5,284 bases of DNA. Origin: Escherichia coli (GTDB lineage Bacteria > Pseudomonadota > Gammaproteobacteria > Enterobacterales > Enterobacteriaceae). Position numbers and translations under genes: made by a program. Positions 11 through 5,284 of the stretch are shown one piece after another; within the stretch, counting starts at the first letter, position 1, and every line of letters begins with the position of its first letter. Where the stretch lies: NCBI RefSeq assembly GCF_036507355.1, contig NZ_AP027882.1; one strand, written 5' to 3'. The notes under the pieces were generated by a model, which made no database searches, had not been told where the DNA came from, and saw only the letters and a list, made by a program, of their open reading frames with translations.

Positions 11-337
11 ATGGAAAAGCGAACGAAAGAGATCAAAATCCGGCTCACCGAAACCGAGCATCAGCTACTGCTTGAGCGCTGCGACCGGACTCATCTTGCT
101 GAGTGGCTGCGTCACCTTGGTCTGGGCGAGCACACCTCACGCAAGCGCCGTGTGCCCAGTGTGGCGCCCGAACTGCTGCGACAGGTCAGCGGGATTGGTA
201 ACAACCTGAACCAGATCGCCCGCCGTCTGAACCAGAGTGATTCCCTTACGCCCTCTGAACGTGTCTCGCTGCTTGCCGTGCTGAACAGTCTCGACCGGCA
301 GCTTGGCGATTTACTGGAGCAGAACCGTGATCGTTAA
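11..337 (+). CDS. mbeC: Relaxosome accessory protein of the MobC/MbeC family
   Basis: 108-aa ORF with GGAG at 4-7 ahead of the ATG. Translation (..LTETEHQLLLERCDR.., ..VSGIGNNLNQIARRLN..) reads like MobC/MbeC proteins of ColE1-type plasmids. Stop at 335-337 overlaps the start of the relaxase gene, the usual mbeC-mbeA arrangement. Assignment is from recalled family resemblance. Confidence 0.8.
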   Translation: MEKRTKEIKIRLTETEHQLLLERCDRTHLAEWLRHLGLGEHTSRKRRVPSVAPELLRQVSGIGNNLNQIARRLNQSDSLTPSERVSLLAVLNSLDRQLGDLLEQNRDR

Positions 338-1862
338 AATTCACTCGCGCGGTGCGGGCTCAGGCAGTGGTCCGGTGGATTATCTGCTGGGAAAAGACCG
401 GCAACGCGAACAGGCCAGTGTGCTGCGCGGCAACCCTGAATATGTGCGCGAGCTTATCGACGGCTGCGACTTTTCCCGCGCCTACACTTCCGGTGTGCTG
501 TCATTCCAGGAGCCGGACATTGCGGATGCCGAGAAATCGCGCCTGATGGATGAATGGGAGCACACGCTGCTGACCGGCCTCGACCGTGACCAGTACGCCT
601 GTCTGTGGGTGGAGCACCGCGACAAGGGACGGCTTGAGCTGAATTTTGTCATCCCGAACATCGAATTGCAGAGCGGCAAACGCCTTCAGCCCTACTTTGA
701 CCGCGCCGACCGCCCCCGCGTCAACGCCTGGCAGACCCTGACTAATGACCGGCTGGGGCTGCGTGACCCGAACGACCCGACCTGTCGCCGACCGCTGACA
801 CAGGCCAGCGATCTGCCCCGCGACAAACAGCTGGCGGCAGAGAAAATCACCACCGGCCTGATGAACCTGATGCAGCAGGGTGTGATCCGCAGCCGGCAGG
901 ACGTGGTGGCGCAGCTGGAAAGCTACGGCCTGACCGTGGCGCGGGAAACGAAAAGCAGCATCAGCATTGCCGATCCGGACGGTGGCAGAAATATCCGGCT
1001 GAAAGGAATGATTTATGAGCGAGATTTTAAATTTGGCGAAGGGCTTCGAGGAGAAATCGAAGCAGCAGGCGCAGGATATCGAGCAGAGCGTGAAGCGCGA
1101 GTTCGGGAGGCTGGAGATGTCTATCGGCGCGGAACTGCAATCAAGCTCGCAGAGCATCAGCAACGCTATCCGCGAGCAGAACGGCAGGCTGACGGGCATG
1201 ATCAGAGCCTCCGTCTCAACGGCGATGGCGTGGATATTCACCAGCTTCGCCCTGCTGATCGGCATCCTGGGCGGGATAATCTGGTTTCAGGGCACGATCA
1301 TCACCTCACGCCTGAGCGAAATGGACAGCTACAGCCAGCAGCTGGCGAGCCTGAAAGCGAAAAGTGGCGCGGGTGTGACGATTTACAGCGACGACTCCCG
1401 CCGGAACACCTACCTGGTGGTGCTGCCGAAGCAGGCACACGGTGTGGAAACCTACACGTCACAGGCCGGAAACACTGTAGTGAAATACACGGCGAAATAA
1501 CCCCATCAGAACGCCCTGAAACGCCTCAGCGCGTTTTTAACACCGAGGACGACCAAAACCATGACCGAGATGGAAAAACAGCTTCTGAGCGCCTTAGAGA
1601 GCTTACAGACAAGCTACGAGCAACAGCAGCAGGCATGGCAGGCCAGCTACAGCAGTTTGCAGCACATGTTCGAGACTACCTCGCAGGCGCTGGAACGCAG
1701 CGACAGGGTCTGTCAGCACTTGAGCAGTCAGGTGAACAGCTTGCGCGATCAGGTCGAGAACTTGAGCTGCAACGTCAGCCGGTTAATGCGCTCGTGAAGC
1801 AGCACGAACACCAGATTCAGATGGAAAAAAAGCGGACACGTTATCACGGCCTTTCAATTTAA
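327..1862 (+). CDS. mbeA: Mobilization relaxase, ColE1 MbeA-like (MOB HEN family)
   Basis: Long GC-rich ORF (open from TTG 303). N-terminus from GTG 327 reads MIVKIHSRGAGSGSGPVDYLLG, closely resembling ColE1 MbeA including the catalytic-Tyr context. Conserved stretch WVEHRDKGRLELNFVIPN (nt about 606-659) carries the His/Glu/Asn motif. GGAG at 316-319 sits 7 nt before GTG 327, so I prefer 327 over 303; the start is uncertain. Confidence 0.88.
   Translation: MIVKIHSRGAGSGSGPVDYLLGKDRQREQASVLRGNPEYVRELIDGCDFSRAYTSGVLSFQEPDIADAEKSRLMDEWEHTLLTGLDRDQYACLWVEHRDKGRLELNFVIPNIELQSGKRLQPYFDRADRPRVNAWQTLTNDRLGLRDPNDPTCRRPLTQASDLPRDKQLAAEKITTGLMNLMQQGVIRSRQDVVAQLESYGLTVARETKSSISIADPDGGRNIRLKGMIYERDFKFGEGLRGEIEAAGAGYRAEREARVREAGDVYRRGTAIKLAEHQQRYPRAERQADGHDQSLRLNGDGVDIHQLRPADRHPGRDNLVSGHDHHLTPERNGQLQPAAGEPESEKWRGCDDLQRRLPPEHLPGGAAEAGTRCGNLHVTGRKHCSEIHGEITPSERPETPQRVFNTEDDQNHDRDGKTASERLRELTDKLRATAAGMAGQLQQFAAHVRDYLAGAGTQRQGLSALEQSGEQLARSGRELELQRQPVNALVKQHEHQIQMEKKRTRYHGLSI
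1015..1500 (+). CDS. mbeB: Mobilization protein MbeB-like, nested within mbeA in an alternate frame
   Basis: 161-aa ORF in a different frame from mbeA, AAGGA 7 nt upstream of the ATG, central hydrophobic segment (AMAWIFTSFALLIGILGGIIWF). Position and size match the mbeB gene nested in ColE1 mbeA. Confidence 0.75.
   Translation: MSEILNLAKGFEEKSKQQAQDIEQSVKREFGRLEMSIGAELQSSSQSISNAIREQNGRLTGMIRASVSTAMAWIFTSFALLIGILGGIIWFQGTIITSRLSEMDSYSQQLASLKAKSGAGVTIYSDDSRRNTYLVVLPKQAHGVETYTSQAGNTVVKYTAK
1561..1797 (+). CDS. mbeD: MbeD-like mobilization/entry-exclusion protein, nested in the 3' part of mbeA
   Basis: 78-aa ORF in the same alternate frame as mbeB, GAGGA upstream, Gln/Ser-rich probable coiled coil (MTEMEKQLLSALESLQ..). 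Matches the position and character of ColE1 mbeD. Confidence 0.7.
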   Translation: MTEMEKQLLSALESLQTSYEQQQQAWQASYSSLQHMFETTSQALERSDRVCQHLSSQVNSLRDQVENLSCNVSRLMRS

Positions 1863-2373: not shown

Positions 2374-3270
2374 TTGAGTAACGCCGCACTCGAACTATTC
2401 AACGAACGCTTGCCGCACAAGCCGTACTTTTCGGACGATTTGCACTTTGGTGTACGCATTGCCGGCAAGGAACGCGCCATTCTGGCGAAATACATCCAGT
2501 TCAATCAGCCTCATGCCATGTTCTGGCTGGGATTCGATGTTGATCGCGCCGGTGCCGCTATTGACTGGAGTGACCGCAATGCTCCCGCGCCCACACTGAC
2601 CATCACCAACCCCGAAAACGGACACGCGCATCTGCTGTACGCGCTAAAAACCTCGATACGCACAGCGCCGGACGGAAAAATGAAGCCGCTGCGCTACGCT
2701 GCCGCCGTGGAGAACGCGCTACGTAAAAAATTAGAGGCTGACGCGGGGTATTCAGGGTTAATCTGCAAAAATCCGAACCACAGGCACTGGAAAATTGCCG
2801 TGTGGCAGCCGGAACTCTACACACTGGACTGGCTGGCCGATTTCCTTGACCTGAACGCTGCGAACGATAAAGAAATCGTTGCCGACTACGGATTAGGCCG
2901 TAACTGCACCTTGTTCGACAAAACCCGAAAATGGGCTTATCGTGCTATTCGTCAGGGCTGGCCTGAGTATGGACAATGGATGCTAGCTTGTGTTGAAAGA
3001 GCTACAGCTTACAACATGCAGTTTTCAGCACCATTAGATGAAAAGGAGGTCATAAGTATAGCGAAGAGTATATCTAAATGGACATATTCTAAATTCACAC
3101 AGCAATCTTTCGATGAATATGTTAAGAAAACACACTCAGCTGAATGTCAGAGTATAAGAGGGCGCAAGAGCTCTGGCGGAGGGCGGCCAAAAATAAGATC
3201 TGAGGAGTGGGTCTCTCTAGGTATTAGTCGCGCTACGTGGTATAGGAAGCACTATAAAAATGAAAATTAA
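2374..3270 (+). CDS. rep: ColE2-type plasmid replication initiator (Rep, primase-like replicase with PriCT-like and C-terminal HTH regions)
   Basis: 298-aa ORF starting at TTG 2374, with an in-frame stop at 2359-2361 just upstream. Translation (..ERLPHKPYFSDD..FDVDRAGAAIDWSDRNAPAP..NGHAHLLYAL..YSGLICKNPNHRHW..GLGRNCTLFDKTRKWAYRAIRQGWP..) follows the conserved blocks of ColE2-family Rep as I recall them. C-terminus has a basic tract and an HTH-like WVSLGISRATWYRK. Base composition switches from GC-rich to AT-rich near 2950. Confidence 0.85.
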   Translation: MSNAALELFNERLPHKPYFSDDLHFGVRIAGKERAILAKYIQFNQPHAMFWLGFDVDRAGAAIDWSDRNAPAPTLTITNPENGHAHLLYALKTSIRTAPDGKMKPLRYAAAVENALRKKLEADAGYSGLICKNPNHRHWKIAVWQPELYTLDWLADFLDLNAANDKEIVADYGLGRNCTLFDKTRKWAYRAIRQGWPEYGQWMLACVERATAYNMQFSAPLDEKEVISIAKSISKWTYSKFTQQSFDEYVKKTHSAECQSIRGRKSSGGGRPKIRSEEWVSLGISRATWYRKHYKNEN

Positions 3271-3916
3271 GATGTATGTCTTGTCTTTGTTTTTTTTGTT
3301 TATACCAATAATTTTTTATTTTTCTGGTATTGATGATGTCTGGAACGTTTTTACCAAAGCTAATGGTTTTTGTGATGGCGTCAGTAATCGTATTGTCTGT
3401 ATAACAGGTAATATGGGCAACCAGCTATCTCTATCCGTGTCAAGGTTATGCGTTTGTATTTTTTTGGTCTTTTTGTGTGGCTATACTTACTGGTGGTATA
3501 AGAGACAGCTTTCATTTTTGGATAGGGGGATTACCTCTGCCGAAGTGGTTGTTGTTGGATGCGAAAAAGAGTCAACTGAGTATCTGTCATTTTTGTCAAC
3601 TTACATAATGCCCCTGGTTTTTACAGACTTAACAAAACCTTCAAATGTTTTCAATTTCATTTTTATTCTAGTTATTGTCGGATTTCTTCATATAAAAACA
3701 AGAAGGATTCATAGCAACCCAACGCTTTCATTGTTTGGTGTTTCTGCTTACAAAATTGACTATATAATCAGGGTTGATGGTCAGGATTCTGATATCACAA
3801 AAGGATTGATTGTCCTGTCGAAGGATGAGATATCTGTGAAAAGTGTAATTCGAATCATAAAAAAAGAAGACTACATTACATTCGCAAAATACATAAGGAA
3901 CGATTCAAATGGCTGA
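3260..3916 (+). CDS. Multi-pass inner-membrane protein, unknown function (about 4 predicted TM helices plus a roughly 70-aa soluble C-terminal domain)
   Basis: 218-aa AT-rich ORF. Hydrophobic segments at about aa 5-23, 57-80, 108-121 and 129-145, followed by a charged tail. ATG 3260 overlaps the rep stop (3268-3270); AGGAAG at 3244-3249. An alternative in-frame ATG is at 3272. Confidence 0.7.
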   Translation: MKIKMYVLSLFFLFIPIIFYFSGIDDVWNVFTKANGFCDGVSNRIVCITGNMGNQLSLSVSRLCVCIFLVFLCGYTYWWYKRQLSFLDRGITSAEVVVVGCEKESTEYLSFLSTYIMPLVFTDLTKPSNVFNFIFILVIVGFLHIKTRRIHSNPTLSLFGVSAYKIDYIIRVDGQDSDITKGLIVLSKDEISVKSVIRIIKKEDYITFAKYIRNDSNG

Positions 3917-5054
3917 AGAAAAACTGGATTTAAGCGAGCTCCATCATGACGCGCAGAAGGCCTCTGAGCTCTCATCCTATTACTCCCACTTCGATACAAA
4001 GGTAGAAGATTTTGACCTTCATGTATATTTTAACTTTAGGCATAAGATAAAGGGCGGTGATGGAAAGTACCGTTACGAATATCGGGTTGCAAAAATAGAT
4101 GATACTACTGTTCTGAAAGAATCAATCAAAGATAACGTGATAACAAAAACCCTTAATGATCTAAGTAGCGGTAGAGTTGCAGTATCTGATATAAAGCAGC
4201 TTAGTGATAGGGCTAGCACTATATCATTTTTAGAAGATGCAAAGTCATACAAAGATGAACAGATGTCTTTTTTGACAGGTATTATTTTTGATAAGGGATT
4301 TGGAGGTGATGGGGATATTCCTGTCGTCAATTTTGAGAAGTTTGATAAAATATCAAAGGTTGACTCAATTGTTTTTGTCTTAAGGAAAGGTGATAAATGT
4401 ATAACAATATACAAAAAACAGTATCCTATACAGAACCTGACCAAACAGAAAAATCATTACTTCTCATATAGCAAAGATACGTTATCAAAAATAGATGCTG
4501 ACATGATATCAATTGATGGAAAAGCCTCTATTGTTTTTGTTAAAGGTACTGCATATATCTATGATCAGGATGTTTTTGAGAAATTTTTCGGATACAAGAA
4601 GTGGATAAAAAAAGTTGCGGGCGAATTTGTTTCTGAAATGAAGCAAAAATTTTCATCGATAGTAGACTTTGGAAAAGTTACCGACAGGCTTGAAAAAGAA
4701 AGTGCTGATGCAGATGCCTTTTCAAGGAAACTGGCAAGAATATATAACAATAAAGATCTAAGAGCTTCCTTTAATACTGTTACACCAGAAAAAATCAGTG
4801 ATTTTTTAGTTGAAAATGAGTATTTCGCTAGATTGCTAAAGTACAAATCAGCGGAAGAACCTTTAGAAGTATCAACCCATGATCAGCAGGAAGCATTTAT
4901 ATTAATAGTTTCTGAGGGCGTTCTTCGCTCGCTTATTACTGGTTTTGATTATTTAAGCCCTGCCGCGAAAAGAAAAATTGCGACAGGCCAAACCGCGCAA
5001 AAACCTTCTTCTGTAGTAACTAGGATACCCTCCAGCGCATCTGACGCCGCCTAA
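3909..5054 (+). CDS. Hypothetical 381-aa soluble protein, unknown function; candidate effector or sensor partner of the upstream membrane protein
   Basis: Long AT-rich ORF with AAGGAA 8 nt upstream. ATG 3909 overlaps the upstream stop (3914-3916) in an ATGGCTGA junction. No Walker, HxH, nuclease or other motif recognisable by eye. Ends just upstream of a strong hairpin plus T-run. Confidence 0.8.
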   Translation: MAEEKLDLSELHHDAQKASELSSYYSHFDTKVEDFDLHVYFNFRHKIKGGDGKYRYEYRVAKIDDTTVLKESIKDNVITKTLNDLSSGRVAVSDIKQLSDRASTISFLEDAKSYKDEQMSFLTGIIFDKGFGGDGDIPVVNFEKFDKISKVDSIVFVLRKGDKCITIYKKQYPIQNLTKQKNHYFSYSKDTLSKIDADMISIDGKASIVFVKGTAYIYDQDVFEKFFGYKKWIKKVAGEFVSEMKQKFSSIVDFGKVTDRLEKESADADAFSRKLARIYNNKDLRASFNTVTPEKISDFLVENEYFARLLKYKSAEEPLEVSTHDQQEAFILIVSEGVLRSLITGFDYLSPAAKRKIATGQTAQKPSSVVTRIPSSASDAA

Positions 5055-5077
5055 CGAACGAGCTTGAGACAAAACAA

Positions 5078-5125
5078 CCTATATCAGATAACAGCCCTCT
5101 CTAAGAGAGGGCTGTTTTTTTTGCA
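5078..5125 (+). other. Candidate ColE2-type replication origin element
   Basis: TATCAGATAACAGC at about 5081-5094 matches the core of the ColE2 ori as I remember it (recall, not search), and is followed immediately by the hairpin and T-run. It lies about 1.8 kb downstream of rep, not directly after it. Confidence 0.4.
5091..5122 (+). terminator. Rho-independent terminator-like hairpin with T-run closing the rep-cargo operon
   Basis: Perfect inverted repeat ACAGCCCTCTC (5091-5101) / GAGAGGGCTGT (5105-5115) around a TAA loop, followed by eight T (5115-5122). Read directly from the sequence. Confidence 0.65.
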
Positions 5126-5139
5126 GCCAGCACAGAATC

Positions 5140-5245
5140 TGACATACTACACCATACCATAAGCCAGTACACACAGCGTCCCCTCTGCGAGGTGCCGTCT
5201 GTGACTGGTTCAGGGGGCTCGCCGCCCCCCGAAACCCCCGGCATC
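5140..5245 (-). other. ColE1 bom-like oriT with putative nic site (minus strand)
   Basis: Minus strand reads ..GAACCAGTCAC..(31 nt)..GTGTGTACTGGCTTATGGTATG.., resembling the pBR322/ColE1 bom region ..GACCCAGTCAC..GTGTATACTGGCTTAACTATG.. recalled from memory. Putative nic within CTGG/CTTA, between plus-strand 5163 and 5164. GC-rich inverted repeat GGGGGC / GCCCCC at 5213-5229 nearby. Confidence 0.5.
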
Positions 5246-5284
5246 CACTGCGAAAAATTCTCACGGTGGTGCGAATTTTTTCTT

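Follow-up and report, generated by a model that had tools for sequence, protein, structure and literature searches.

What does the 3′ end of this 5,284-bp stretch of Escherichia coli DNA (hereafter the window) do, and does it belong with the mobilisation genes that begin at its other end? Our analysis supports, with high confidence, the reading that positions 5160-5250 serve as the transfer origin (oriT) of a mobilisable plasmid belonging to the ColE1 superfamily (MOB-HEN, alternatively MOBP5). We demonstrate homology to ColE1-type oriTs, synteny with the mob operon, two adjoining hairpins (A and B), and an intact cognate relaxase gene with its accessory genes. An oriT of this sort is an ordinary and already known element, and the plasmid type has likewise been published; the added value of the present survey lies solely in the hairpin-length classes that emerged across the whole oriT family.

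The nick region and its relatives

The first-pass annotation had proposed two bom-like blocks on the minus strand, and both were recovered, with CCAGTCAC as the complement of 5201-5208 and GTGTGTACTGGCTTA as the complement of 5160-5174. The minus strand reads in the order GGGTTTCGGGGGGCGGCGAGCCCCCTGAA-CCAGTCAC-AGACGGCACCTCGCAGAGGGGACGCT-GTGTGTACTGGCTTA-TGG. Within 5160-5208 it presents CCAGTCAC, a 26-nt spacer and the nick region GTGTGTACTGG↓CTTA (5160..5174, minus strand; the arrow marks nic), and hairpin A adjoins at 5209-5233. The core of the nick region is identical to the ColE1 motif CTGGCTTA, and this motif, or nick octamer, contains the site at which the ColE1 relaxase cleaves (PMC5703827). 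By correspondence with ColE1, nic is predicted to lie on the minus strand between 5164 and 5163. The sequence ACTGGCTTA (minus strand, 5168-5160) is present as a single copy in the window and is identical in ColE1, and the shorter core TACTGGCTTA occurs once in each. The original mapping of the ColE1 nick reportedly placed it at this core.

Comparison with ColE1/pMB1 (pBR322) revealed an extensive set of shared features. These comprise the nick core GTGT(A/G)TACTGG↓CTTA, the use of CCAGTCAC as the 5′ arm of a hairpin, a GC-rich hairpin directly upstream and the block GGATGCC. Relative to the mob genes, the core CTGG↓CTTA is on the opposite strand, as expected of a ColE1-superfamily oriT. In the window as in ColE1 the strand that is nicked is complementary to the mob coding strand, and the two oriTs are oriented alike with respect to these genes. 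In ColE1 (NC_001371, locus L001) the corresponding stretch, on the strand opposite the mob genes, is CCAGTCAC-GTAGCGATAGCGGA-GTGTATACTGGCTTA, with 14 nt between the blocks (positions 1477-1490) in place of the 26 nt of the window. The spacing of 31 versus 19 nt given in the first-pass annotation was reproduced exactly when the distance was measured to TACTGGCTTA. A strict ColE1/pMB1 bom, defined by a 14-nt CCAGTCAC-GTGTATACTGG spacer and a 33-nt hairpin, thus differs from the window, whose spacer is 12 nt longer and whose hairpin B has 45 nt. ColE1 further differs in about 30 additional nucleotides beyond hairpin A and in the presence of rop between oriT and mobC.

Pairwise BLAST of 5130-5284 against ColE1 returned three short colinear blocks of 13-15 nt with E values of 0.12-1.4. 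Because these blocks were unconvincing on their own, we replaced them with a family profile built from relatives. Scanning the relaxase N-terminal domain against one genome per species yielded 80 loci, whose relaxases share 48-97% identity with that of the window, and 63 of these had sufficient upstream sequence to be evaluated. The motif CTGGCTTA or a one-mismatch variant of it was found opposite the mob genes in 53 of the 63 evaluable loci. In most loci the core lies approximately 415-500 nt upstream of the relaxase start, and in six others it is farther away (578-992 nt). The distance from nic to the relaxase start is 447 nt in the window and 714 nt in ColE1, the latter being longer because rop is inserted between oriT and mobC.

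A profile HMM (nhmmer) constructed from 21 distinct ColE1-type oriTs, none of them of the window's type, matched the window once, at 5250-5158 on the minus strand (E = 2.4e-7; runner-up E = 1.8). All details of the observation in the first-pass annotation proved accurate. On these sequence comparisons, homology between this region and the nick region of the ColE1/pMB1 bom/oriT can be regarded as established.

Two hairpins and their length classes

The GC-rich inverted repeat that had been noted alongside the two blocks is hairpin A, TTCGGGGGGC-GGCGA-GCCCCCTGAA (5209..5233, minus strand), which was identified by inverted-repeat detection and by folding. Its arms at 5209-5218 and 5224-5233 (coordinates converted from pLAO2 by a shift of +3070) are 10 nt each and 90% complementary, and they enclose a 5-nt loop. 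A GGGG...CCCC hairpin occupies this position in every clade, with differing flanking pairs, and in locus L005 one base is missing from each arm. Hairpin A directly abuts hairpin B on the nicked strand, so that both inverted repeats stand 5′ of nic.

Hairpin B was delineated by DNA folding and spans 45 nt (5164..5208, minus strand), with its 3′ end exactly at nic; the CTGG↓CTTA junction coincides precisely with the 3′ foot of the hairpin. It consists of a closing stem CCAGT/ACTGG, a 3-nt bulge, an inner stem CACAG/CTGTG and the apex CCTC-GCA-GAGG. The predicted fold has a free energy of -14.0 kcal/mol (z = -3.5), and one of 200 shuffled sequences folded equally well. Across the family, 35 of 43 distinct sequences have a hairpin closing at nic as their minimum-energy fold.

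Alignment of 31 distinct hairpins showed that stem cells are paired in 94.6% of cases, compared with 14-47% when the partner columns are slid, and three pairs have changed on both sides. The outer four pairs are almost invariant and are therefore uninformative with respect to structure. The fifth closing pair appears as T:A, C:G or G:C across the family; it was kept out of the formal pair count and tallied separately because MAFFT placed its base in differing columns according to class. Similarly, the ungapped alignment of the window's clade was not used for pair counts since its inner stem is mis-registered, the clade containing subtypes with 3- and 4-nt loops. Within this clade the inner stem is CACAG/CTGTG in some members and CACGG/CCGTG in others. 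A counterpoint to the conservation of hairpin B is found in pMUT2 of E. coli Nissle 1917, where the outermost closing pair is mismatched (ACAGT/ACTGG).

Alignment with ColE1 and pMUT2 placed the 12 extra nucleotides of the window, as a clean indel, inside hairpin B. They leave nic next to its recognition element, and their effect is a longer hairpin B stem. We considered whether the 12 nt could be an insertion private to this plasmid and rejected this explanation, as they are common to all 15 loci of the clade and deeper clades have still longer hairpins. Hairpin B measures 33 nt in the ColE1 clade, the shortest in the family, 45 nt in the 15 loci of the window's clade (including pMUT2); clades from Vibrio, Aeromonas, Halomonadaceae, Pseudomonas, Acinetobacter and others have hairpins of 48-60 nt. 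When the relaxase domains were arranged in a neighbour-joining tree, every length class was restricted to its own relaxase clade. The longer spacing of the window is thus what its relaxase clade normally shows and is nothing peculiar to this plasmid.

Among the 80 relatives surveyed, the two-hairpin design is at its shortest in the ColE1/pBR322 bom. A single neighbour-joining distance tree places the 33-nt clade within those with long hairpins, and on this lead the short hairpin of ColE1 looks derived. The occurrence of discrete hairpin lengths, each restricted to one relaxase clade, suggests that the hairpin may determine specificity. We offer as a tentative idea, more doubtful than probable, that hairpin B is a specificity determinant that keeps co-resident mob systems orthogonal, and that the ColE1/pBR322 bom of the textbooks is a minimised descendant and not the prototype. 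If so, related mob systems carried on several small plasmids in one cell would stay orthogonal.

The apex of hairpin B also varies between classes. The sequence GCGAAGC or a close variant forms the apex in the 48-60-nt classes (L025, L029, L032, L036, L056, L071 and others), in the place where the window's class has CCTC-GCA-GAGG. The GCGAAGC heptamer forms a DNA mini-hairpin of unusual stability.

A complete circular plasmid with its mobilisation operon

The first-pass annotation had described the window as nearly a full circular plasmid. The circle proved correct and the "nearly" did not, for the 5,284 bp constitute the entire plasmid. The window is matched over 100% of its length, at 99.0-99.9% identity, by six PLSDB records that are likewise exactly 5,284 bp long. 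Each match falls into two pieces, which indicates a rotated circle, and the end-to-start junction (TTTTTTCTT followed by AGCGGAGCC) is unbroken in pLAO2. The plasmids pSE18-SA00377-4 (CP071392), pF18S027-2 and pLAO2, all 5,284 bp and 99.9% identical, are essentially this same plasmid. The published account of the first (PMC10686068) gives its length as 5,284 bp, assigns it to Col(Ye4449) and lists mobC, mbeD, mbeB and a relaxase gene. None of the records of these three plasmids that we examined carries an oriT feature. On the circle, the site lies upstream of the mbeC homologue, as had been anticipated, with 130 nt from nic to the mobC start across the junction.

The mobC gene (mbeC homologue; 11..337, plus strand) is preceded by a GGAG Shine-Dalgarno sequence at 4-7 and encodes a relaxosome accessory protein with matches to the Pfam families NikA-like (1.4e-11) and MobC (1.4e-10); its product is 45% identical to the MobC-family protein of ColE1 (E = 1e-28). 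It is followed by an MbeA-like MOB-HEN relaxase gene (327..1862, plus strand; Pfam Relaxase), whose product aligns with ColE1 MbeA from end to end at 43% identity (E = 3e-114). Read from the sequence, the start of this gene is a GTG at 327 (MIVKIHSRG...), which overlaps the end of mobC. Alignment of the relaxases of the window, ColE1 and pMUT2 revealed that the catalytic tyrosine Y19 and the HEN residues H97, E104 and N106 are invariant; these MbeA residue numbers are reportedly those of Varsaki et al. 2003.

Two further genes are nested within the relaxase gene on the plus strand, namely mbeB (1015..1500; another frame, Pfam MbeB_N 3.6e-17) and mbeD (1561..1797; Pfam MbeD_MobD 3e-22). The window shares with ColE1/pMB1 the mobC-relaxase order, the nested mbeB and mbeD and the catalytic residues; its oriT is situated just upstream of the operon. 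This arrangement, with mobC immediately upstream of mobA and further genes nested in mobA, is known from MOB-HEN plasmids (PMC5703827). In the PGAP/RefSeq annotation of sister records the relaxase is listed as a partial pseudogene; as its frame is intact in the window, we take this call to be an annotation artefact arising from the nested genes. For locus L084 (pFLI21_8, 1005-1322) and in the PLSDB tables of L001, L002 and L085, the MbeA-like relaxase is annotated as a partial pseudogene or is absent from the gene tables.

Between the oriT hairpins and mobC lies a leader (5240..5284, plus strand) with the conserved block GGCATCCACTG and a TGCGAA direct repeat. The block GGCATCC within the leader is common to the window and ColE1. 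The two TGCGAA copies (5249-5254 and 5270-5275; 21 nt from start to start) precede the mobC ribosome-binding site and are kept in the window's clade; a sister subgroup has TGCGAAA / TTTCGCA / TGCGAA in the same place. The leader is a candidate MobC operator or mob promoter region, and the repeat itself may be a MobC operator. A scan across the circular junction found no sigma-70 consensus promoter for the mob operon.

The replicon is of the ColE2 type and not of the ColE1 type. The rep gene (2374-3270) encodes a product with Replicase and PriCT_1 domains, in contrast to the RNAI/RNAII replicon of ColE1, and the mob proteins of the two plasmids are just 43-45% identical. No Rfam match to RNAI was obtained in the window, which also lacks the RNAI/RNAII replicon and rop of a strict ColE1 bom plasmid, and no Rfam family reached its gathering score. 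Upstream of rep, at 2244-2363, two sub-threshold matches were seen: the plus strand resembles PK-repBA (35.8 bits, below the gathering score of 45) and the minus strand a CopA-like antisense RNA. Both are consistent with antisense-RNA control of rep copy number.

A ColE2-type replication origin (oriV) was located at 5065-5122; it comprises TGAGAC...CCTATATCAGATAACAGCC, a 13-bp hairpin at 5090-5116 and then T8. Its distance is approximately 40 nt to the oriT nic and 1.8 kb to the rep stop codon. In many genera ColE2-like rep genes have the conserved motif beside them, and in the simplest relatives it directly follows rep. Colicin plasmids such as pIGMS5 have a closely related sequence at their rep stop codon, an exact copy of what we take to be the ColE2-P9 origin. 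A text search of the literature for the oriV motif returned only unrelated primer sequences.

The interval between rep and oriV is occupied by the Kiwa anti-phage pair kwaA/kwaB (3260-5054; PADLOC kwaA 1.9e-121, kwaB 1.2e-220), with kwaA overlapping the end of rep. The GC content of the pair is 31-37%, compared with 55-63% for the backbone. A 61-aa minus-strand ORF at 5079-5264, overlapping oriT and oriV, was disregarded as unsupported as a gene. The gap between the mob operon and rep holds a 78-aa ORF (1959-2195; 35% GC), which is hypothetical in sister records and has no Pfam or PADLOC match.

Among named plasmids, pMUT2 shares the layout of ColE2-type rep, kwaA, kwaB, oriV, oriT, mobC and relaxase, together with an identical nick region and a relaxase N-terminal domain that is 77% identical. 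It differs in its oriT-region DNA (about 80% identical), in the mismatched outermost pair of hairpin B, and in carrying a RelB/DinJ antitoxin gene that the window lacks. In the published plasmids pHW66 (Rahnella) and pUB6060, a low-GC insert that is cistronic with repA stands between the ColE2-like repA and oriV, and the mob system, which is of the ColE1 superfamily, comprises mobA-D and a conserved oriT (PMC2831885). By that description their architecture is the same as that of the window; their cargo differs from the Kiwa kwaA/kwaB pair carried here.

Proposed transfer route and alternative explanations

By analogy with what is established for ColE1 and for relaxases in general, the hairpin region would be the place where the relaxase assembles with the ribbon-helix-helix protein MobC. 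Cleavage by Tyr19 of the relaxase would fall between 5164 and 5163 of the minus strand (GTGTGTACTGG↓CTTA) and leave the protein bound to the 5′ end. The coupling protein and the pore would be supplied by a co-resident conjugative plasmid, which for relatives is of the IncP, IncF or IncI type. The minus strand would then exit in the 5′ to 3′ direction, with the ColE2-type oriV first, followed by kwaB, kwaA and rep; the mob genes would enter last, and hairpins A and B after them. Once hairpin B, with its end at nic, has re-formed on the strand that was transferred, it may present the site for the final joining step, in which the plasmid is recircularised. Two plasmids with a ColE-type oriT and mobC-mobA/BD have been reported to be mobilised by IncP, one of the two also by F (PMC9282650).

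Three other explanations for the same region were weighed against a working oriT. A decayed or orphan remnant, out of use, in a plasmid that spreads vertically or by other routes is very unlikely. Relatives do include altered forms: p1147-3, which has no relaxase, contains two matches to the changed core CTGA↓CTTA, with a rep fragment fused, and locus L044 carries ACTAG↓CTTA; moreover, PGAP flags the sister-record relaxase as partial. Against such decay, the nic core and both hairpins of the window are intact, all four mob genes are open and conserved, and the element has been kept with compensatory changes at 15 loci in many enterobacterial genera. Near-identical plasmids in Salmonella, E. 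coli and Dickeya additionally argue for recent horizontal spread.

Less likely still is that the hairpins serve mainly replication, as a lagging- or single-strand initiation signal or as a ColE2-type terminator, with the likeness to bom being secondary. The closeness of oriV to nic would suit this explanation, as would the adjoining of oriV and oriT in most ColE2-type relatives. However, ColE1, an RNAII replicon without a ColE2 Rep, has both hairpins and nic beside its mob genes, and hairpin length tracks the relaxase clade and not the replicon; in locus L034, for instance, a ColE2-type rep and oriV are accompanied by a 33-nt hairpin of the ColE1 type. Least credible of all is a chance likeness of short GC-rich motifs where no oriT exists. 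The weak BLAST blocks would be compatible with it, and a 10-mer with one mismatch is expected by chance about 0.3 times per window. The three blocks are nevertheless colinear with ColE1, position and strand are conserved over 53 loci, and the profile match is single and significant, so that the survey of relatives and the ColE1-type profile have already refuted a chance resemblance.

A ColE1-superfamily oriT thus gives this small Kiwa plasmid, near-unchanged in three genera, a mobilisation module that is complete with its cis-acting site, which explains how the plasmid could have spread across genera. Public records of the plasmid family, including pMUT2, have no oriT annotation, and the relaxase often appears in them as a partial pseudogene. 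The mobility of these plasmids may consequently be underestimated by automated calls.

The p1147-3 plasmid (L087, NZ_CP091632) is a ColE1 replicon, and its two CTGA↓CTTA core matches are located at 2275-2345 and at approximately 4694. The copy at 2275 belongs to the 45-nt hairpin-B class of the window and is fused to a ColE2-like rep gene fragment; this element may represent either an orphaned oriT or the scar of a recombination event.
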